A stretch of DNA of 8,925 nt from a virus. Taxonomy: Duplodnaviria > Heunggongvirae > Uroviricota > Caudoviricetes. Within the stretch, counting starts at the first letter, position 1, and each line of letters begins with the position of its first letter. Below are positions 361 to 8,925 of the stretch, in pieces. A program made the translations under genes and the position numbers. The DNA is taken from IMG/VR virus record IMGVR_UViG_2681813316_000018; one strand, written 5' to 3'. The notes beneath the pieces are model-generated. The model was not told where the DNA came from. It did not search any database and saw nothing but the letters and a program-made list of their open reading frames with translations.

Positions 361-1113
361 CTATCTTGTCACTTTTCTCAATTGCGATTCAGCATACGCT
401 TCTTCCTGCCAGCACTTTGTAACCAGTTTATTAATAACGTCTGCATATCCTTTGTACCACTGATAATCCGTCAGGTCCGGTACCAGTTTCTGGACATGAT
501 GCCGCGCCAGTGTGGTTGGTAAACGGCTAAACCGGTTGCCATTGCAACGCCCACAAATCTTATAAACAGGCACACCATGAAGCCGGGTTCTTTTTTCATC
601 CAGGACAATACCTTTACCCTTACACCCTCTGCACGCTGTGCTGACTTCTCCCTTACCATGGCAATGCTGACATAGTTCCTTCACCCACTCTTCCTTGATA
701 ACAGATTCCCCGCTTCTGGAGTGTTTCACCACTTCGCGCAATACATTATGAAATCCAGTACCAGCACAATGCTCACAGCGAGCCTTACTTGCCGCAGACC
801 TGGAATAATCAGCAAAGGCAAAATTCACAAGGTAAGGGATGATCTGTAACCGGATTTCTTCACTCAATTTGTTCAATGTCGGGTTATCCAGTGCCATCGC
901 GTAATTGAGCAGACCTTCAATCGCAAACTGAGGGTCCTGAACGCCAACTTTTGCCAGGAATAAGGCAAACCCAAGCGGTGCTTTCGACTGCACCATCCCC
1001 TGCGCAGCCATTACATCCGTAATTGTTAAACCACCCGAGCCTGTCGCCGGTGCGTCATCGCTCAGTTTTGGAGATTTCGGGGAGTAATATTTCGGTAAGG
1101 CTTCAAGGTTCAT
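361..1113 (-). CDS. Late-gene antitermination protein Q (QuuQ-like, 250 aa)
   Basis: 250-aa ORF; CxxCxGxG-type zinc-finger repeats (CEHCAGTGF, CQHCHGKGE, CRGCKGKG); SD GGAGA 7 nt upstream of ATG at 1113; last gene of the early operon, immediately after a DUF968-like gene as in Qin (ydfU-quuQ). Similarity to QuuQ is recalled, not searched. Confidence 0.75.
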   Translation of the reverse strand: MNLEALPKYYSPKSPKLSDDAPATGSGGLTITDVMAAQGMVQSKAPLGFALFLAKVGVQDPQFAIEGLLNYAMALDNPTLNKLSEEIRLQIIPYLVNFAFADYSRSAASKARCEHCAGTGFHNVLREVVKHSRSGESVIKEEWVKELCQHCHGKGEVSTACRGCKGKGIVLDEKRTRLHGVPVYKICGRCNGNRFSRLPTTLARHHVQKLVPDLTDYQWYKGYADVINKLVTKCWQEEAYAESQLRKVTR

Positions 1114-1126
1114 GCTCGTTCTCCAC

Positions 1127-2122
1127 TTACGCCAGTACGCCTATTGCCAGCGCACGATCGATAAAACGAAATATCAGCTCCAGCTGGGAACCATACTTCT
1201 CTTCAAATGCCACGGTATCCGCATGCAGCTCGTCGTGATGCTTTCTGCACAAAGGCAACACAAAGAGGTCATGCGCTTTTGTACCCATTCCCCCCTGACC
1301 GTGGCCTATCAGGTGGTGGGGATCATCAGCAGGCTTTCCACAACATGCACACGGCTGTGTCTTAACCCAGCGTGTGTACTTTTCATTAACCCAGCGGCGA
1401 CGTTTTGGGCGTAACATAAAAGACTCCGGCGACTCCGGATCCACTTTCAGCGCCAGCACCTTTTTCGCCTTATCCTGGATGATGCTGGTGGCAGGAACCG
1501 AAGGCACAAGGTCACTTTCCCGGGTGACAGACGGCACAACAGGCTTCGGTAATCTCAGTGCCTTACGGGCTGCACTTTCCGGTAAGGCATCCGCCAGGTC
1601 ATTACGAATCAGCCACCAGCACAGTTCCGGCATTGTCACAACGTGACTGTCATCAAAACCGAGATCCCGACGCACAACAGACAACACCCAGCGGGCACAG
1701 TTATCCGTTGCCATTGATTCCAGCCGTTCCGTGAACTGATCACGCAGCTGGTTATCGCAGTGCCAGCACAGACGGATTGCGCCCGGCGCGTGTCGCATTG
1801 TGGTCATGTTCTCGCTGTGCCAATCGGAATGAGGCCACTGGCAGCCTTTTTCACGAAGTAACCAGCTTTCAAGACATTCCACGCCACCAGCACGACGGAT
1901 CACTGCCTCATTGCGGAACACGGCCCGAACGGCAGGATCATCCACCAGCGGTTGTGATGCCGCCGGAACGGCACCACTGGCGAAAGATGAATAACGTTCC
2001 GGCTCAGGCTCCAGCAGGACACGCCCCTGCATAAACAGGGGCATCAGCTCTGAACCTGGCCTGAACAATACGATCCCCATACGCGGGGCAATTTCAGGGG
2101 TCAGTAGTGCTCTCACGGTCAC
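1127..2122 (-). CDS. DUF968/YdfU-like protein with C-terminal HNH-like Cys/His motif (putative nuclease); start codon uncertain (GTG at 2122 or 2116)
   Basis: 331-aa ORF; C-terminus has CACCGKPADDPHHLIGHG...CRKHHDELH; begins 1 nt after the KilA-N gene stop; sits directly upstream of Q like ydfU in Qin. Family name recalled from memory. Confidence 0.6.
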   Translation of the reverse strand: MTVRALLTPEIAPRMGIVLFRPGSELMPLFMQGRVLLEPEPERYSSFASGAVPAASQPLVDDPAVRAVFRNEAVIRRAGGVECLESWLLREKGCQWPHSDWHSENMTTMRHAPGAIRLCWHCDNQLRDQFTERLESMATDNCARWVLSVVRRDLGFDDSHVVTMPELCWWLIRNDLADALPESAARKALRLPKPVVPSVTRESDLVPSVPATSIIQDKAKKVLALKVDPESPESFMLRPKRRRWVNEKYTRWVKTQPCACCGKPADDPHHLIGHGQGGMGTKAHDLFVLPLCRKHHDELHADTVAFEEKYGSQLELIFRFIDRALAIGVLA

Positions 2123-2123
2123 C

Positions 2124-2933
2124 TCAATGAACGGTATCGAGCAGCTTTAACAGCTCAGGGAATCGGGATTCGAAGAAATGCGGCTGCGTCTCGCGCGGAT
2201 TTGCGGGACTGGTGATGTTCTTGCCGAACATGCAGCCTTTCGCCGTCAGCGACCAGAATTTTTTGATGTTGTTAATCGCAGTGCGGCTGTATCGTTCACG
2301 TTGTTCAACGATCCCCAGCTTTGCCATCTGGTGATATGCCTGATTAGCCGTCAGGCGGATACCATACTGTTTCAGCAGTGCACTCAGTGACAGTGTCGGG
2401 CGACTTGAGCCATCGTGTGCATCAGCAGGAGCATCAATGGCATAGCGCGGTGCCAGATTCGGTAAGCCAACAGCCTCCTGGAGTTTCTGACAGGCACCAA
2501 GCACAGATGAGTTAGACAGGTTTAATTCCCGACGCATAAAGTCCAGCAGAATCACACCAGCCTGCATCTTGTCAGCAGCCTGTCCGGATAATTTTTCCGG
2601 TGTGCTGGTTACCATGTCGAAAGTACGGATCACCTTCAGATGGAATGACGGGCTGATCCACATTGCATAGGCATACACCAGTTCCTTGCAGACATACGTT
2701 CCCCGTTCATTTCCCCCATGAATCACACTCACCGGGTCAACACCCAAATTCTGGGTGTTGGTCAATTCATGAACAAGTTCAACAGTTTGTTGGCTGGAAA
2801 GAAACTTTCCTGGCTCCTTGGTTCTGGCATTTGCACCAGATGCTACTGCTGCGTGATGTAGATCGTTCAGGCTGTAACGCCCATAAACATCACGACGAAC
2901 TTCAATACCATCAATGACCATCAGATTATTCAT
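2124..2933 (-). CDS. KilA-N domain protein (N-terminal KilA-N DNA-binding domain plus C-terminal extension)
   Basis: N-terminus MNNLMVIDGIEVRRDVYGRYSLNDLHHAA matches the KilA-N/APSES-type pattern; start placed at the internal ATG (2933) because it has SD GAGGAG about 9 nt upstream, whereas the ORF-track start at 2966 lies inside rusA with no SD. Confidence 0.7.
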   Translation of the reverse strand: MNNLMVIDGIEVRRDVYGRYSLNDLHHAAVASGANARTKEPGKFLSSQQTVELVHELTNTQNLGVDPVSVIHGGNERGTYVCKELVYAYAMWISPSFHLKVIRTFDMVTSTPEKLSGQAADKMQAGVILLDFMRRELNLSNSSVLGACQKLQEAVGLPNLAPRYAIDAPADAHDGSSRPTLSLSALLKQYGIRLTANQAYHQMAKLGIVEQRERYSRTAINNIKKFWSLTAKGCMFGKNITSPANPRETQPHFFESRFPELLKLLDTVH

Positions 2934-2952
2934 ACTTCGTTTCTCCTCTTGA

Positions 2953-3342
2953 TCAGGCGGCTGCACCCGCCGTTTTCTCGTACTTACTGATAGTGATCTC
3001 GACCTTCCCTTTCGGGATAACCGGTCCCCACTCCACCAGCATTCTTTTCACCTGACTGTCGTCTTCCCACACACCCGCGTGGGTCAGGGCGTCAAACAGC
3101 GCCTTGTTATAGTTGTCCAGATCGCGGATCCTGTTATCCGGAGGAAACAACACGATCTCCACTGAAGCAGGTGCCGACGTTGGTTTCGGCAGACGACGTA
3201 ACTGCTCAATGATGGCGGCACACGCCGCGCTCTGAAATTTTCGCCCCGCCTCGCTTATCAGGCTCTTACCAGCAAATGCCCCTTTGTTGGGGTGTCGCCA
3301 GTACGTGTTCACGCTGGGCGGAAAAGGCAGTATTAGCTTCAT
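2953..3342 (-). CDS. rusA: Crossover junction endodeoxyribonuclease RusA (Holliday junction resolvase)
   Basis: 129 aa; catalytic-region motif RIRDLDNYNKALFDALT matches the RusA acidic DxD...D signature; start ATG overlaps the upstream MTase stop (ATGA). Confidence 0.85.
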   Translation of the reverse strand: MKLILPFPPSVNTYWRHPNKGAFAGKSLISEAGRKFQSAACAAIIEQLRRLPKPTSAPASVEIVLFPPDNRIRDLDNYNKALFDALTHAGVWEDDSQVKRMLVEWGPVIPKGKVEITISKYEKTAGAAA

Positions 3343-3992
3343 GCCACCATCTCCCTGACCAGTTTTTCCGCCTGCTGGCGAACCTGCGCCAGAAATGCCT
3401 CACCACATGCCTCAAGTTCATCGCGCCCGATGTAGCTGATTGCCGGTCCCTTCCAGGTCTTGTCGAAAACAGCAATAGCACCAGCGAAGAAAGCACCTGT
3501 TGGCACCTGCTTTTCGTCTTTCGGGATAAACCAGGCAGGCAGTTCAAAACCAATACGCCCGCGAATAAAAGCAATATGATCTGCACCTTCCGGCCACCAC
3601 ACTTCGCCGGTGGCAGCTTTGATCAGGAAAACATAGCGCCCGCCTTTATCACGCATGGCACTGGCATGCTTCATGATGTAACGCATGCCGGTGATGTATT
3701 GCCCCTCATGCTGACTGGCGCGGCTGTACGGGGGATTGCCAAAGGCAGCACCTTTAAGCTCCGCAAGACGTTCTGACCAGTCATGCGCCAGCGCGTTGTC
3801 TTCCGCCGTGTAATACGCGGCACATTTGGCGTTATCACCGTCAGTGAACAGATCCAGAACAAACGGACCAAACAAGGTGTTAATTCCCCAGAAAATGTTG
3901 TCCGGCGTGCGCCACTGATCGCCCACTTCCTTCAGTTCATGGGCTGGTTTGTTCCGCAGTTCTACCAGCGCCTGGCAATATTTATTACTCAT
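3339..3992 (-). CDS. Phage Dam-family DNA N6-adenine methyltransferase
   Basis: 217 aa; motif IV GNPPY (AAFGNPPYSRA) characteristic of N6-adenine methyltransferases; size and position typical of phage Dam-family MTases; start ATG overlaps the stop of the upstream 30-aa ORF (TAATG). Confidence 0.75.
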   Translation of the reverse strand: MSNKYCQALVELRNKPAHELKEVGDQWRTPDNIFWGINTLFGPFVLDLFTDGDNAKCAAYYTAEDNALAHDWSERLAELKGAAFGNPPYSRASQHEGQYITGMRYIMKHASAMRDKGGRYVFLIKAATGEVWWPEGADHIAFIRGRIGFELPAWFIPKDEKQVPTGAFFAGAIAVFDKTWKGPAISYIGRDELEACGEAFLAQVRQQAEKLVREMVA

Positions 3993-4086: not shown

Positions 4087-5079
4087 TCACCCCCTGAATC
4101 CTGCCGGGATCTGGCTGTAGTCCACGTTGTCGTAACTGGCTTTGAAGTACGGGTCTTCACGTTTTTCTGTGTGCGTGCTGACGGACGGCGATAAGCGCAG
4201 GGAAAGCTCATCCCATTTTTCCCGCAACTTCGACGGGCTGAGCACGTTACGGCACCAGAACGGATCGCGGCTGACGCGGCTGTACATCTCGCAGATTTGT
4301 TTGTGAGTACGACCATCCTGCACACACATCAGGCGAATTTCGTTTGCCCATGCTGTCCAGTTCGGTTCTTTGGGACGAACCACCTCGCCGTCACATTCGG
4401 CGGCCTGCTCGTACAGGGCGATGATTTTTTTCCAGAGCCACTGTGCGCAGGTCAAATCATCCTGCGTTCCCCACTGGCGCTTTTTAGGGCTGAATACAAC
4501 CGCATCAGGATGGCGAGTTAAAAACTCCTGTTCAGCCGTTTGCGTGTCCGGTTGCGAAGCGTCCGGACGAGAAGAGGTTTTATTCTCTGTAGTAATCTCT
4601 GTTGTATTCTCTGTAAGATCATTGGGCCATTTTGACCCGATGACAGCGTGTCGTTTTGAACCAATGGATCGTATCATTTTGCGCCCATCCATCAGGTCAC
4701 TTTGACCCGATGGAGAAGTGCATTTTGACCTGATGGATTCGTTCACTTTGACCTCTTCTAAAAGCTCACTTTCATAGTTGATCGTGTAGAAGTTGGTCAT
4801 GTCACGCTTCGATTTATTGAGTTGCTCGCGACGCAAAACCCCAAGTGATTTCAGGCTTGCAAATGTGCGTTTCAGAGTGGACTCTGACCAGAACGGAAAC
4901 TGCTCCAGCCACTGTTCTGTCGTGTTATAAACCCAGCGAATTCCGCCATGCTCAGTGCCTGAATTCGTTTCATTCAGCCAGTAATGAAGCTGCTGCAACA
5001 CAATTGCCTCATTCAGACCAATACGGCATGCAAGATCACGATTTATCACAATGGGCTGGGATGTCATTAACAGGCTCAT
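4087..5079 (-). CDS. Putative replication initiator (lambda O-like in architecture; iteron array inside its coding sequence)
   Basis: 330 aa; SD GAGG 6 nt upstream of ATG; first large gene after the cro/regulator cluster; a low-complexity linker (TENTTEITTENKTSS) next to an internal direct-repeat array as in lambda O/ori. No sequence similarity to lambda O itself was recognised; function is inferred from position and iterons. Confidence 0.55.
   Translation of the reverse strand: MSLLMTSQPIVINRDLACRIGLNEAIVLQQLHYWLNETNSGTEHGGIRWVYNTTEQWLEQFPFWSESTLKRTFASLKSLGVLRREQLNKSKRDMTNFYTINYESELLEEVKVNESIRSKCTSPSGQSDLMDGRKMIRSIGSKRHAVIGSKWPNDLTENTTEITTENKTSSRPDASQPDTQTAEQEFLTRHPDAVVFSPKKRQWGTQDDLTCAQWLWKKIIALYEQAAECDGEVVRPKEPNWTAWANEIRLMCVQDGRTHKQICEMYSRVSRDPFWCRNVLSPSKLREKWDELSLRLSPSVSTHTEKREDPYFKASYDNVDYSQIPAGFRG
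4628..4755. repeat. Iteron array (putative replication origin): six direct repeats with 23-bp periodicity, core TTTGACC(C/T)GATGG
   Basis: Repeats start near 4628, 4652, 4675, 4698, 4721 and 4744 (cattttgacccgatga, cgttttgaaccaatgga, cattttgcgcccatcca, cactttgacccgatgga, cattttgacctgatgga, cactttgacctc); flanked at 4570-4620 by an AT-richer stretch with ttctctgta repeats. Confidence 0.65.
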
Positions 5080-5248
5080 GACCGACCTCTATTTCCCTGA
5101 ATTTACGACGAAACTGTTCGAGCGGACTGAAGCATTCATGTTCATAGCCTTCACGGAGGTAGATAACCCGTTGTGTTTCCGGCTCCAAACGAATGACTCT
5201 GACGGGCACTCCGTAGTGATCTTTGAACCAGCGGTTAACTTGTCGCAA
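5036..5248 (-). CDS. Small hypothetical protein (70 aa, TTG start); possibly a DUF4222-like prophage protein
   Basis: Strong SD AAGGAG 8 nt upstream of TTG at 5248; protein-like composition ([37 protein letters not shown]); overlaps the O-like start by about 44 nt and conflicts in frame with ORF 5089-5427. DUF assignment is an unverified recollection. Confidence 0.4.
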
Positions 5249-5427
5249 AGGACTGTCTCCTTCTGCCGGTTGAAATCACCCACAGCCCACTCTGCAAAGC
5301 TGTGGGTTACAATTTCCCTGTCACCTGGTACATTCACTGCATAGCAATATTCCACCTTCGCTTTTCCACCCGGTACAGGAAGCGCAATCAGTTGCGAGCG
5401 ACGGTAGTGTGTTGTTAAACTGTTCAT
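5089..5427 (-). CDS. Hypothetical ORF (112 aa) coupled to the upstream regulator gene; conflicts with ORF 5036-5248
   Basis: ATG overlaps the upstream TGA (ATGA) with SD GGAG upstream; N-terminal about 45 aa looks protein-like, C-terminal part is Ser/Thr-rich and low-complexity; a 9-bp-stem hairpin (5278-5307) lies inside it. Confidence 0.3.
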
Positions 5428-5981
5428 GCGTTAGTTTCTCCACAACCAGAAGCAATCGACGCCACGACGCCCGGAGCTGCACACTCGCGGGCGTTACTCT
5501 CTTCTGGAGCGCAAAAGATTTTGTAGACCAGTGCTGCATGCTCCTGGAGCTTCGAAATTGACAGATACAACTCATCATTAATTGCTGTCTGCTCGTGTGG
5601 CTCCACTACCCCATCTTCGATTGCCGAACGAATCTGCTTTGAGTAACTCCCGATCTGTTCGATGACTTCCAGCAGGCGCTGGTTTATATCGGCGTTGTCC
5701 ACATCCTCGACGTCAGGAAGAGACACAAAGACGCCATTTGCAGACTGCGCCACAGCGTCAGCAATGAAGTGAGTTCCACCAGCACGTTGCAAAATCATTG
5801 CCCATCCCAGCGGGAAAATCTGATCGCCATCGGCACGAAGGCGGTTAAATAATGCGTTCTCTGTTACATCCAGCCAGTCAGCTGCTTCAGCGTAACCACC
5901 CGGCAACGTTGCGATAGTTTTTCTGACAGCTTTCACGTACCACTCAGGCTGTTTTTCTACTTTCCAGTGATGCTTACCCAC
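5424..5981 (-). CDS. Putative early regulator in the cII position (YdaT-like; functional analogue of CII by position)
   Basis: ORF immediately downstream of the Cro/YdaS-like gene; start placed at GTG 5981 (SD AAGGAG about 7 nt upstream) rather than ORF-track ATG 6014, which has no SD and overlaps cro. YdaT-like identity is inferred from synteny, not from recognised motifs. Confidence 0.5.
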
Positions 5982-6003
5982 GGCTATCTCCTTAAAACTG
6001 TGG

Positions 6004-6252
6004 TTACTTTCCATCTGATAAGTCTTTAATCTTTTGAAAAATATCTGGACGTAATTTTTCTTTTGATACGCCAGTGGTCATTTCAATAAATATCGAGAGC
6101 TTTGCAGGGGGACGCTTTTCTCTGTTCAAACAGTTCCAGACATGTTGTTGCTTTACTAAACGACCACTGCTGGCTGTGAGCTTCCGAGCCAATTCTGATT
6201 GACCACCAGCCAGAGCGATTGCCTCTGATAAGGCTAATTGCTCAGGTGTCAT
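6004..6252 (-). CDS. Cro-like HTH repressor (YdaS/Cro family)
   Basis: 82 aa; SD AGGAG 6 nt upstream; motif AGGQSELARKL...LRPDIF matches the YdaS/Cro-family pattern as recalled; divergently transcribed from the CI-like gene across an operator-rich spacer. Confidence 0.8.
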   Translation of the reverse strand: MTPEQLALSEAIALAGGQSELARKLTASSGRLVKQQHVWNCLNREKRPPAKLSIFIEMTTGVSKEKLRPDIFQKIKDLSDGK

Positions 6253-6389
6253 AGCTTTCTCCTATCTGTAAGTAGTAAAGTTGTTGATAACTTCGATTAT
6301 ACAACTACAACAACTTTTATCACAACTTTTAGATGTTGGAAAGCTAAAACATAAAGTTGTAACCTCAATAAAAACGAGGGGGATATGTT
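6253..6389. promoter_or_regulatory. OR-like operator/promoter region between cro-like and cI-like genes, including a PR-like promoter for the minus strand
   Basis: At least four operator-like sites built on AAGTTGT/ACAACTT half-sites: AAGTTGTTGATAACTT (6278-6293), ACAACTACAACAACTT (6301-6316), CAACTTTTAGATGTTG (6323-6338), AAAGTTGTAAC (about 6352-6362). On the minus strand a perfect -10 TATAAT (complement of 6296-6301) with a TTGTGA -35-like hexamer 18 bp upstream would drive cro. Confidence 0.7.
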
Positions 6390-7076
6390 GTGAAAACATT
6401 GGCAGAAAGACTAAAAAGCGAAAGAGAAAAAGCAGGAATGAGTCAGGCGCAACTAGCTGAAAAAATTGGGCTTTCACAACAATCCGTAGCGAAAATCGAG
6501 AATGGAGAAACTCAACAGCCTCGGAAAATTAAAGAGATTGCTAAAGTGTTAGGGGTTTCTCAAAAGTGGTTGCAATTGGGAATTGAGGATAACGCGTCTT
6601 TCCCAGACCTTGTTGTAAAGGAGGCTGAAAGTACAGCATTAGATCCTGACATTTTTGCAAACATTCCAGTCCTAGATGTCGAGTTATCAGCGGGTAATGG
6701 ATGTTTGGCTGAAATAGTTGAATCAACTGTAGACTGGTTCCCGCTAAGAAGGATTGATTTAAGAAAAGCTGGTGTATGTGTCTCCAATGCAAAGATCGTA
6801 AAAATTTGGGGCAATAGTTTACTACCTGTACTTAACAATGGAGATTTTGTTGCTGTTGATGTTTCCCAAACGGTTCCTATTCGTGATGGGGATCTTTATG
6901 CCATACGTGATGGCGTATTACTTAGAGTTAAAATATTGATCAATTTACCTGACGGTGGTCTGATTCTAAGAAGTTTCAATAAAGATGAGTATCCAGATGA
7001 AATACTCACCTTCGAAGATAGGCGTTCCAGAATTCACGTTATAGGTAGAGTATTCTGGTCATCGCGCACTTGGTAA
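6390..7076 (+). CDS. CI-like prophage repressor (N-terminal XRE-type HTH, C-terminal S24/LexA-like autopeptidase)
   Basis: 228 aa, GTG start with SD GAGGGGGA; HTH (MSQAQLAEKIGLSQQSVAKIENG); Ala-Gly cleavage site (LSAGNG); Ser (WGNSLLP) and Lys (LRVKIL) catalytic-dyad positions as in LexA/lambda CI. Confidence 0.85.
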   Translation: MKTLAERLKSEREKAGMSQAQLAEKIGLSQQSVAKIENGETQQPRKIKEIAKVLGVSQKWLQLGIEDNASFPDLVVKEAESTALDPDIFANIPVLDVELSAGNGCLAEIVESTVDWFPLRRIDLRKAGVCVSNAKIVKIWGNSLLPVLNNGDFVAVDVSQTVPIRDGDLYAIRDGVLLRVKILINLPDGGLILRSFNKDEYPDEILTFEDRRSRIHVIGRVFWSSRTW

Positions 7077-7261
7077 TGCATCAAAAAACCTTCCTTCAGA
7101 AATTTAGTTACCATTATTACCCGCCTTTTCAATCTTCCTCCCGTGATTTGAGAGTTTCCAATCACGGAAGGAAAGTGTCCCTTGTGTAATTAAAAGCGCA
7201 TCGTCCATACAACCTCCTTTTTTGATAACCCTTGCCCTCATTTCACATCCGTCAAAACCAC

Positions 7262-7317
7262 ATAAAGTTGTTGACAACAACCAAAACAACAACTAGATTA
7301 CAACTTAAAGATGTTGC
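7262..7317 (+). promoter_or_regulatory. OL/pL-like operator-promoter driving the leftward (plus-strand) early operon
   Basis: Perfect 7-1-7 inverted repeat GTTGTTGACAACAAC (7267-7281) containing a consensus -35 TTGACA (7271-7276); -10-like TAGATT 17 bp downstream (7294-7299); CAACTTAAAGATGTTG (7301-7316) nearly identical to the OR site CAACTTTTAGATGTTG. Confidence 0.6.
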
Positions 7318-7409
7318 AGTAACGAACAGGCAGGACGCCCACGAAGTAGCCGCCGGTGGCGTATGAATGACCGGATGATTCGTTAAATACTATGTGTAAG
7401 AGAGCACAA

Positions 7410-7613
7410 ATGAACAGTTATTTCACATGCTCGTTTTGTGGCGCAAACGAGCTGCAGGCAAAAAAAATCATCGCCAAAGGCGGAAAAGATGAAGTTGCTA
7501 TCTGCTCTGAGTGCGTAGTCTTGTGTGTCGGGGCATTAATCAATATCAGCACAACTATTCGGTTCACACCAAATGAGAATGCGCCTTTAGATACGCTGAA
7601 ATCTGGAGGTTAA
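7410..7613 (+). CDS. Small protein with ClpX-type C4 zinc finger (zf-C4_ClpX-like), first gene of the pL-like operon
   Basis: CSFCG...(about 20 aa)...ICSECV matches the ClpX N-terminal zinc-binding domain pattern (E. coli ClpX: YCSFCGKSQHEVRKLIAG...YICDECV). Start placed at ATG 7410 (weak SD GAGAG) rather than 7392 (no SD); either is possible. Confidence 0.6.
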   Translation: MNSYFTCSFCGANELQAKKIIAKGGKDEVAICSECVVLCVGALINISTTIRFTPNENAPLDTLKSGG

Positions 7614-7702
7614 AGAACAAAATGAAAGTCCAGATTTTAAACAATAACTGTGAAGTCGTTTGGGCGTAAAACATGACCGCGCGTAGACCAAGGGAGGAAA
7701 AA

Positions 7703-7879
7703 GTGGGAATAGTTAGAACTCAAGCAGATATATTGAAAATCAGCTCTGAATTGCTTGGAGTTTTGAAAAGTGAGCTCACCGCACATGGCATCGAGCCCAC
7801 TGACGAAAATTTAAGTTGGGTTTTGTCGATTATTCAACAATCACTCAAGCCCAGCCTCAGCAAACTTTTTATCGAGTAG
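7703..7879 (+). CDS. Hypothetical small protein (59 aa from GTG 7703; 68 aa if ATG 7673 is used)
   Basis: Strong SD GGGAGG 6 nt upstream of GTG at 7703; no recognised domain. Confidence 0.4.
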   Translation: MGIVRTQADILKISSELLGVLKSELTAHGIEPTDENLSWVLSIIQQSLKPSLSKLFIE

Positions 7880-8139
7880 TGCTTCGAACTATCGTAAAGC
7901 TTGCTTATGTCGTCTATCGGGTTTTCTGACGTACTGTAATTTTTATCTGATGTCATGGCAGCAGTCTGATATGCAGTGCGAGTCTTAACCGATAGTTGGA
8001 ATAAATAAAGAATTTTTCTTCTTTGGTCATAACTATTTCCTTCTTGGCTATATGAAAACACCAAGATACCACCGAGCCTGAAGTGGTGAAAAGACAGGCA
8101 CATAACAGCTAAGTATTTTCAACCAAAAAGAATCCTTAG

Positions 8140-8450
8140 CGTTGTGGTGAATGCGGCTCAGCGCACGCGGGTTAAGGTTGAGGCTGACAGTCGACCTTCT
8201 GTGGATACCCACCCGCCTGGTGTGCAACCTTCGCCAGGCACCGGGAGGCACCCGGCACCACAACTTTATGCTGTGTGTAGTCCTGGCGGTACCAGCTTGT
8301 ACCCTTGCTTCCGGCTGGTACCGTCCTTTTTACAAAACAGAGAAGAGCATCACCGGACGACGGGCTCATAACCCAATCCATCCGGGCGGCTGCCACCGCA
8401 GGTGTTCTTCTCTGTTTTGTGGAGAAACTAATCGGCCTTGCAGGGTCGAT
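8140..8450 (+). other. GC-rich, highly self-complementary non-coding segment (candidate structured RNA or cis-regulatory element)
   Basis: Sharp rise in GC relative to the flanking AT-rich sequence; open frames on both strands translate to Arg/Pro/Cys-rich, non-protein-like sequence; several perfect stems (8215-8239, 8241-8255, 8285-8325). Confidence 0.3.
8285..8331 (+). terminator. Intrinsic (Rho-independent) terminator in the leftward operon
   Basis: Perfect 10-bp stem cggtaccagc (8287-8296) with gctggtaccg (8314-8323), extendable by G.U and G-C pairs, loop about 15 nt, followed after 1 nt by TTTTT (8327-8331). Confidence 0.5.
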
Positions 8451-8470
8451 ATGATGAGGAGCAGCAAAAT

Positions 8471-8831
8471 GGCTAGCGAACGCAGTACTGATGTGCAGGC
8501 ATTTATCGGGGAGCTGGACGGCGGCGTATTTGAAACCAAAATCGGCGCAGTTCTCAGTGAAGTCGCTTCCGGTGTGATGAACACGAAAACCAAAGGTAAG
8601 GTCTCGCTCAACCTGGAAATCGAACCGTTTGATGAGAACCGTGTGAAAATAAAACACAAACTCTCATATGTTCGCCCGACTAACCGCGGGAAAATTTCCG
8701 AAGAAGACACCACCGAAACGCCGATGTATGTCAATCGCGGTGGTCGTCTGACTATTCTGCAGGAAGACCAGGGACAATTACTGACTCTTGCCGGTGAACC
8801 TGACGGAAAACTCCGCGCAGCAGGTCATTAA
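8471..8831 (+). CDS. Hypothetical protein (120 aa) of the leftward early operon
   Basis: SD GAGGAG 7 nt upstream of ATG 8471; protein-like composition from MASERSTDVQAFIGELDGG onward; the ORF-track extension back to 8151 is Arg/Cys-rich junk within the GC-rich structured region. Confidence 0.55.
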
Positions 8832-8896
8832 TATCGTTCTTAATTAACTGATTATTTATCTCATCACTGAATATCTTTATATAGTGAGGACTTATT

Positions 8897-8925
8897 ATGT
8901 CTCAGAACTTAGACGCAACCGCAAT
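8897..8925 (+). CDS. 5' end of a further gene (MSQNLDATA...), truncated by the window edge
   Basis: ATG at 8897 preceded by SD GTGAGGA with 6-nt spacer; only 9 codons visible. Confidence 0.3.

Follow-up and report, generated by a model that had tools for sequence, protein, structure and literature searches.

A stand-alone ClpX-type zinc-binding domain heading the early-left operon of an E. coli lambdoid prophage: a candidate competitor for ligands of the ClpX N-domain

Background

The ClpXP protease controls the phage proteins lambda O and Mu transposase, and also sigma-S, antitoxins and the fragments of cleaved repressors. Other host proteases are the targets of small, early-made phage inhibitors, namely lambda CIII (FtsH; expressed from pL) and the T4 PinA and T7 Gp4.5 proteins (Lon). 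To our knowledge, no phage protein targets the N-terminal domain of ClpX, and a literature search found no phage protein aimed at it. The subject of this paper is a gene for a 67-amino-acid (aa) protein that carries ClpX's zinc-binding domain (ZBD) and none of the AAA+ module. The gene lies in a stretch of 8,925 nucleotides (nt) from a virus of the Caudoviricetes (IMG/VR record IMGVR_UViG_2681813316_000018), which is referred to below as the window. The protein is an ordinary member of an annotated, uncharacterised domain family, and it is plausible that it serves as a decoy for ClpXP, as was put forward in an earlier note made on this DNA from its letters.

In ClpX, SspB, RssB, trigger factor and lambda O all dock on the ZBD dimer, at a single hydrophobic side pocket that includes F16 and I46 (PMC7804408). 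Purified ClpX ZBD supplied in trans blocks the ClpXP degradation of sigma-S that RssB mediates, and ClpX from which the ZBD has been removed still degrades ssrA-tagged proteins (PMC7226468).

Identity of the protein

The open reading frame (ORF) that begins at the ATG at 7410 encodes the product MNSYFTCSFCGANELQAKKIIAKGGKDEVAICSECVVLCVGALINISTTIRFTPNENAPLDTLKSGG. An in-frame ATG upstream, at 7392, would yield a 73-aa form, and the earlier note gave the length as 67-73 aa. Homologues without exception begin with MNxY(F/Y)TCSFCG, and the extensions upstream of that Met differ between clades. Therefore, the start is placed at 7410 and not at 7392, and only the shorter of the two lengths is retained. 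A Shine-Dalgarno-like site stands ahead of the ATG at 7410 (Table 1); the ATG at 7392 lacks one. Both the gene and its domain are already present in public collections. The NCBI Prokaryotic Genome Annotation Pipeline (PGAP) names the protein 'ClpX C4-type zinc finger protein' (WP_024237502.1), and among the PHROGs it is assigned to phrog_5259 (E 1.5e-29), for which the listed function is unknown. Recognition of the gene is thus not new.

The earlier note had read the cysteine motifs as a ClpX-type ZBD free of AAA+. This is borne out by the hidden Markov model search for PF06689 (zf-C4_ClpX), which gave 41.3 bits (E 1.4e-10; gathering cutoff 27 bits) across residues 12-46 of the 73-aa form and was the sole Pfam family matched. 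The spacing of the cysteines is therefore no coincidence, and it is confirmed that the match far exceeds chance. When all PDB sequences were searched with phmmer, ClpX chains alone were returned, with the E. coli ZBD (2ds5) at the top (E 3.6e-4). In the alignment to 2ds5, CSFCG and ICxECVxLC are in register and 3 residues are inserted in the beta-hairpin. A BLASTP comparison to K-12 ClpX yielded 16/33 identities (48% across 33 residues), again with both motifs in register. Cys7, Cys10, Cys32 and Cys35 are the predicted zinc ligands; they align with the zinc ligands C15, C18, C37 and C40 of ClpX (Met1 counted) and are invariant in the family. The core residues F16, L27, I28, I35, V40, L42, C43 and I47 of ClpX correspond to F9, I20, I21, I31, V36, L38, C39 and L43 of the phage protein.

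The AlphaFold2 model, built with nine family sequences, reaches a predicted local distance difference test (pLDDT) score of 73-89 for residues 1-50 and falls below 50 for residues 53-67. A treble-clef fold with a C-terminal helix is predicted, and the model can be superposed on the solved ClpX ZBD. In a Foldseek search of the PDB, the model matched 2ds5/2ds6/2ds8 at a root-mean-square deviation of 1.4-1.7 Å, a target-normalised template-modelling (TM) score of 0.80-0.83 and a probability of 1.00, and every match other than the ClpX ZBD had a probability of at most 0.21. The scores for the ClpX equivalogs TIGR00382 and NF003745 of NCBIfam were only 25.7 and 22.7 bits, compared to cutoffs of 359 and 371. 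Since the protein ends at residue 67 and these scores are far under the cutoffs, it has no AAA+ module and is not a ClpX. By profile, by ligands and by predicted fold, the 67-aa protein is a member of PF06689. It would probably bind zinc and dimerise. The NCBIfam search gave no functional name for it, and none of the three forms compared with the defence profiles of PADLOC-DB (67, 121 and 203 aa) had a match at E<=0.01.

Conservation and variation in the family

The ratio of non-synonymous to synonymous divergence (dN/dS) was calculated over codons 1-47 for four divergent variants, comprising the E. coli form, two Salmonella-type forms and one 121-aa form. Synonymous sites are saturated across the four (20-27 differences of ~30 sites). 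Non-synonymous divergence is 0.16-0.28, and dN/dS, where calculable, is 0.12-0.31. In the family, 28 positions are invariant, and all four Cys are among them. The tails beyond residue 47 range from 10 to 75 residues in length and differ in sequence. It can be seen that the ZBD is under strong purifying selection while the tails drift, and the function therefore sits in the domain. The run of eight A within the gene is a frameshift hotspot. In 5 of 80 IMG/VR loci that encode a relative, the gene is out of frame at this run and would give a 35-aa product. These frameshifts could be sequencing errors or slippage-based on/off switching.

Several relatives have longer C-terminal parts. The C-terminal half of a 112-aa Salmonella form corresponds to PHROG 28225, and phage 118970_sal3 encodes this half separately, in an overlapping ORF. 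The 121-aa relative belongs to PHROG 20296. At one further locus, L127, a 203-aa ORF begins 98 nt past the start of the conserved leader described below, in the same slot, and carries a second, divergent ClpX-type ZBD (Pfam 35.4 bits). There the ZBD is fused to a C-terminal region of ~160 aa, the end of which is homologous to a free-standing 64-aa first-slot protein of another locus (L149). Additionally, four divergent long tails (P0008, P0010, P0012 and P0021) run through a variable, disordered linker to a shared terminal motif of the form (I/L/V)x(I/V)xFx(D/H/Y)(A/S)P. The tail of the window protein (IRF..NAPLDT) was considered as a carrier of this distal motif and rejected; its alignment instead matches the linker of the longer relatives. 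In the AlphaFold model of P0010, an 86-aa relative, the tail is disordered (pLDDT <50) and no docking of the motif on the ZBD is visible.

Stand-alone relatives at large

Close homologues form only 15 clusters among 5.8 billion proteins, from E. coli and Salmonella, and 'ClpX C4-type zinc finger protein' is already the name of several of them. When 1.84 billion representatives were searched with a profile, 596 proteins were returned at E<=1e-3, nearly all of 50-300 aa. In the best 150 matches, 2 are of ClpX size (~416 aa); the others have 27-465 aa, and many contain 2-4 tandem ZBDs. With a wider profile, more than 7000 stand-alone ZBD matches were found in 90% clusters. Thousands of stand-alone ZBD proteins are thus annotated and functionally blank, and the 67-aa protein is therefore one member of a large class. 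A literature search found nothing on free-standing ZBD proteins, whether of phages or of other origin. A scan of species-representative genomes for relatives yielded only 3 distant loci, in Clostridia; the gene is too rare to show in such genomes.

The contexts of the distant relatives are diverse. In Desulfofundulus, a free-standing ZBD gene stands amid recombinase, excisionase and transposase genes, and further ones adjoin genes of the signal recognition particle (SRP) or an extracytoplasmic-function (ECF) sigma factor. Among predicted viral structures, the ZBD fold is found in small, uncharacterised proteins of Pseudomonas, Bacillus and Clostridium phages. One 2505-aa bacterial protein carries 37 ZBD repeats. 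In a Beijerinckiaceae operon of the order tig-clpP-X-clpX-lon (L211), X is a tandem-ZBD ORF (5001-5378, 125 aa) between clpP and clpX (5375-6640), overlaps the start of clpX and evidently arose when the 5' end of clpX was duplicated. The Rac prophage protein YdaE was considered as a ClpX-like protein and rejected, as its sequence is without the CSFCG/ICxEC pattern.

The first slot of the early-left operon

The zinc-finger ORF is the first ORF after a pL-like promoter and a 64-nt leader, in agreement with the place given to it in the earlier note as first gene of a pL-like operon. Around the promoter, the repeats TAAAGTTGTTGAyAAC, ACATAAAGTTGT and ATyACAACTTwwAGATGTTG recur in the divergent cro/cI region (6276-6360). 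Since the promoter is embedded in repeats that it has in common with the cro/cI region, it is a repressor-controlled analogue of pL. The zinc-finger gene would accordingly be expressed early on derepression.

The leader is nearly invariant in SfII, ST64B, mEp460 and 118970_sal3, and its flanks on both sides, promoters as well as downstream genes, differ between them. An exact 38-mer of the leader is found in more than 120 IMG/VR contigs, and the leader is present, unannotated, in 1386 of 5426 complete E. coli genomes. It has no Rfam hit. A structure of three helices (1-6/59-64, 9-11/17-19 and 33-37/50-54) can be drawn in which 93.8% of cells are paired, compared to 18-43% in slid controls. Four compensatory pairs were found (GC/AU 29:11, GC/UA 43:3, GC/UA 42:2 and UA/GC 44:2). 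The RNAfold energies of the leader are no better than those of shuffles. The leader is probably a structured RNA, and it is a more unusual object than the zinc-finger gene itself.

What follows the leader (7385-7680 in the window) is variable. At the 80 IMG/VR loci, nearly every ORF for a relative begins ~86-95 nt past the start of the leader core. Across the same loci, the repressor is 100%, 94%, 82% or ~26% identical to that of the window, or undetectable; the O protein, where detectable, has 66-100% identity; and cro and orf68 (PHROG 15476) may each be present or absent. A homologue of 57 aa stands at this place in Salmonella phage 118970_sal3. In SfII, the leader is followed directly by orf68 and there is no zinc-finger gene, and in ST64B and mEp460 it is followed by other first genes. 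Downstream of the leader 38-mer, 106 distinct contexts were distinguished. About 27 of them start with a ZBD gene, from at least two lineages, and the remaining ones have no ORF or small, unrelated ones, among which one has an HTH_17 domain. In view of these varied repressors, O proteins and first genes, the first slot is hypervariable and the ZBD gene occupies it as an optional cassette, independently of immunity and replication type.

A trace of such exchange is seen in the window. The short ORF at 7623-7670 (+), which encodes MKVQILNNNCEVVWA followed by its stop codon, represents the beginning of a 122-aa gene, truncated here and intact in the first slot of another locus, L098. The truncated and the intact copy together are evidence of cassette replacement by recombination.

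Setting of the gene in the window

The window corresponds to the immunity and early region of a lambdoid prophage of E. coli, one of the CPS-53/SfII/SfV/ST64B type (Table 1). At least 80% of window positions 6300-8925 is contained in each of 25 complete E. coli genomes. The top match is 99.7% identical, and there the PGAP gene order is repressor, 'ClpX C4-type zinc finger protein', yfdP and a YfdQ-family gene.

Table 1. Coordinates of features in the window
Feature	Position	Strand	Basis and remarks
Q-like antiterminator	361-1113	-	PHROG 127, E 2e-108
DUF968/HNH protein	1127-2122	-	
KilA-N protein	2124-2966	-	
RusA	2953-3342	-	
Dam	3339-3992	-	
O-like replication initiator	4087-5079	-	PHROG 391, E 7e-102
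CP76-type cII	5424-6014	-	
YdaS-type cro	6004-6252	-	
cI-like repressor, HTH_3 + Peptidase_S24	6390-7076	+	Pfam; directly upstream, same strand
Operator-like repeats, ACAAC/GTTGT half-sites, overlapping pL-like promoter	7256-7317	.	Repeat families D1-D4, D8, I2, I7, I8, I12
pL-like sigma-70 promoter, TTGACA-17-TAGATT	7271-7299	+	Promoter scan, 10/12 matches
Conserved 64-nt leader of early-left transcript	7321-7384	+	~20 nt past pL -10 element
Shine-Dalgarno-like AAGAGAG	7398-7404	+	Read from sequence; 5 nt ahead of ATG 7410
Stand-alone ClpX-type zinc-finger protein gene, 67 aa	7410-7613, stop included	+	ORF list, Pfam PF06689, PGAP, PHROG
Zinc-binding domain proper, residues 5-47	7422-7550	+	ClpX alignments, AlphaFold2 model, Foldseek, invariant columns, dN/dS
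A8 run within zinc-finger gene, frameshift hotspot	7460-7467	+	Sequence
C-terminal helix of zinc-binding domain	residues 33-51	+	AlphaFold2 model/alignments
C-terminal tail, residues 48-67, predicted disordered, weakly conserved between variants	7551-7610	+	pLDDT, variant tails
orf68, 68-aa protein of unknown function, next gene of operon	7673-7879	+	PHROG 15476, E 8.8e-49

Several other features of the region were noted. The Q-like antiterminator contains DnaJ-type CxxCxGxG zinc-finger repeats, which give rise to weak matches to DnaJ and anti-TRAP. An antisense ORF (7104-7208, -) for 34 aa, MDDALLITQGTLSFRDWKLSNHGRKIEKAGNNGN, is situated between the cI stop and pL. Its Shine-Dalgarno sequence is a perfect AAGGAGG, and a hairpin whose arms are 17 nt long (7135-7173) lies inside it. 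The ORF travels with this type of cI/cro and has no family match of note. Further downstream, 8123-8334 (+) matches the Gammaproteobacterial small RNA STnc100 of Rfam with 41.7 bits (E 1.6e-6), just below the gathering score of 47. This stretch lies upstream of yfdP (8469-8831), and PGAP places a frameshifted hypothetical protein there.

Possible functions of the protein

The best explanation of these findings, held tentatively, is that the free ZBD competes for ligands of the ClpX N-domain. Once the repressor frees the early-left promoter, a zinc-bound, probably dimeric mimic of the N-terminal docking domain of ClpX would be made. It would compete with host ClpX by binding the ligands of its N-domain, for example the adaptors RssB and SspB or N-domain-dependent substrates. 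ClpXP degradation that depends on the N-domain would be selectively slowed, and degradation by recognition at the pore (ssrA-type) would be left intact. Given the known docking role of this domain, a free ZBD produced at derepression would be expected to compete for N-domain ligands.

Several findings support this proposal. The homology to the ClpX ZBD is specific and significant, and nothing else in the PDB matches. The core positions of ClpX have their counterparts in the phage protein, and strong purifying selection acts on the domain. The hypervariable slot behind a repressed early promoter and leader is where genes for host takeover would be expected. Stand-alone ZBD proteins also recur in unrelated phages and mobile elements. 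[quoted passage not shown] The pocket on which it would depend has fared less well, as the position of I46 is unconserved.

A number of observations weigh against competition. Of the two pocket residues, F16 is kept as F9 but belongs to the structural CSFCG knuckle, and I46 is replaced by A42 at a position that varies between A, I, V and K in the family. Y34 of ClpX is replaced by A30, and the hairpin carries the insertion of three residues. The helix surface is uncharged and hydrophobic (VVLCVGALINI), compared to an acidic one in ClpX (VDLCNDIIREE). The family has invariant surface residues of its own (N2, Y4, E14, K23 and N45), which suggests a partner of its own. A recent copy or capture of the host domain, one sense in which the earlier note could be taken, was rejected on account of the low identity to ClpX and of a profile that prefers short stand-alone ZBDs over ClpX. 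The O-like initiator, which the note had singled out as the protein to be stabilised, was also dropped as a specific client, for the co-occurrence table combines the gene with O proteins 66-100% identical or undetectable and with unrelated repressors. The N-terminal ClpX motif of lambda O is TNTAKI, and the N-terminus of the O-like protein of the window, as read from its sequence, does not obviously resemble it. The gene is dispensable, being found in 98 of 5426 complete E. coli genomes (1.8%) compared to 1386 for the leader, missing from SfII, ST64B and mEp460, and frameshifted at 5 of the 80 loci. Finally, in S. aureus ClpX contributes during induction to the clearance of cleaved repressor fragments (bioRxiv 10.1101/2022.09.18.507959), so that a blanket inhibition of ClpX could be counter-productive.

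Some of the same observations point to a small zinc-finger binder that acts independently of ClpX, with the dimeric treble clef serving as a generic scaffold against another host or phage target, such as a sigma factor, a repressor or a defence protein. This is a possibility to be taken seriously, if a somewhat doubtful one. The invariant surface residues peculiar to the family, the hydrophobic helix unlike that of ClpX and the unconserved I46 position all agree with it, as do the varied contexts of free-standing ZBD genes (SRP genes, an ECF sigma factor and mobile-element genes). A precedent is the CsfB protein, a dimeric treble clef similar to the ClpX ZBD with a function unrelated to ClpX (PMC5890618). 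However, CsfB is only ~20% identical to the ZBD, whereas the 67-aa protein is well above the threshold of the ClpX ZBD profile. The fold search of the PDB gave the ClpX ZBD alone at high probability, with the next matches at or below 0.21, and PF06689 has no known function besides ClpX docking.

It is unlikely, though conceivable, that the protein is an adaptor or recruiter, in which the ZBD would pair with the ClpX N-domain or take an adaptor site and the C-terminal part or a partner would deliver a target to ClpXP. Relatives that join a constant ZBD to differing C-terminal extensions (the 112-, 121- and 203-aa forms) are in keeping with such a role, and so is the common motif at the end of several divergent tails. 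The form in the window, however, has neither these extensions nor the distal motif, only a disordered tail of 20 residues that aligns with the linker, and AlphaFold shows neither structure nor docking of the tails (pLDDT <50). Heterodimerisation is also uncertain, as ClpX ZBD dimers are stable.

That the protein regulates the early operon by binding nucleic acid, for instance as an N-like factor with the leader as its site, is highly improbable. The gene does occupy the place of N or Nun in lambda and HK022, right after a conserved and probably structured leader. Only ~27 of the 106 leader contexts have a ZBD gene, so there is no obligate pairing with the leader, and SfII, ST64B and mEp460 carry the leader without the gene. 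The protein lacks an arginine-rich motif, and the ZBD is not known to bind nucleic acids. An antiterminator acting on the leader is thus largely refuted by the distribution across leader contexts.

That the ORF is a decaying, functionless remnant of captured clpX 5' sequence is scarcely credible: the rarity of the gene (1.8% of E. coli genomes), the frameshifts at the A8 run in 5/80 loci and the clpX 5' tandem duplication that yields free ZBD ORFs in one bacterial lineage would fit it, but the reading is contradicted by the selection pattern, with saturated synonymous sites against a dN of 0.16-0.28 and 28 invariant positions including all four Cys, and the place and spacing behind the leader are fixed across 80 loci.

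Competition for N-domain ligands would have several consequences. It is possible, although we regard it with some reserve, that the phage has in this protein a natural 'anti-adaptor', which mimics the ClpX N-domain in trans, selectively shuts off adaptor- and N-domain-dependent ClpXP proteolysis and spares that of the ssrA type. The clients hit would then be RssB/sigma-S, cargo delivered by SspB, and substrates of the lambda-O and MuA types. Such an activity could stabilise early proteins of the phage or block abortive infection by toxin-antitoxin systems that ClpXP triggers. If the gene were read through from the repressor transcript in lysogens, it could raise RpoS or exclude ClpX-dependent phages, for example Mu. 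On this reading, ClpXP would have a general, unrecognised class of regulators in the thousands of stand-alone ZBD proteins of bacteria and phages. Mimicry of the docking domain would be a new viral route to reprogramme a host protease, selective by class of client. It would provide a function for the very large 'ClpX C4-type zinc finger' family and a genetic tool against adaptor-dependent ClpXP degradation. If the protein is not such a mimic, the ZBD fold would have been reused for another target.

Comparison with known systems

The E. coli ClpX ZBD (PF06689; PDB 1OVX, 2DS5-2DS8) and the phage protein are alike in the CxxC...CxxC ligands, in CSFCG and ICxECVxLC, in the hydrophobic core and in the predicted treble clef. 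The phage protein differs in the lack of the linker and the AAA+ module, in the hairpin insertion, in the changes of Y34 to A30 and I46 to A42, and in the uncharged surface of the helix.

Compared to lambda CIII, T4 PinA and T7 Gp4.5, the likeness lies in the proposed logic alone, and there is no relation in sequence or fold. Those proteins act as a competing substrate or as direct inhibitors of the protease, whereas mimicry of the docking domain of the protease is proposed here. If the decoy idea holds, the expected outcome would be the same as with the anti-adaptors IraD, IraM and IraP, with RssB kept from delivering sigma-S. The Ira proteins, however, have unrelated folds and bind RssB via surfaces of their own. 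CsfB (Gin), an anti-sigma factor of B. subtilis, is likewise free-standing, dimeric and similar to the ClpX ZBD in its treble-clef zinc finger, but its targets are sigma factors and a common ancestry with the ZBD is doubted by the authors who described it (PMC5890618). The PDB fold matches listed for the model of the phage protein do not include CsfB. The leader is similar in size and place to the putL antiterminator RNA of HK022 and has no sequence similarity to it; Rfam has no put family.

The nearest counterparts are the stand-alone and tandem proteins of bacteria, phages and mobile elements that contain PF06689 only (PHROGs 5259, 20296, 12435 and 6797), which belong to the same architecture class. 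Most of the bacterial members have 2-4 tandem ZBDs and are more similar to ClpX (CSFCGK..QV.RLIAGP). In contrast, the enterobacterial prophage clade to which the window protein belongs is single-domain, with the signature MNxYxTCSFCGAxE..AKKIxAKGG and CVVxCV, and its place, at the head of the early-left operon, is fixed.

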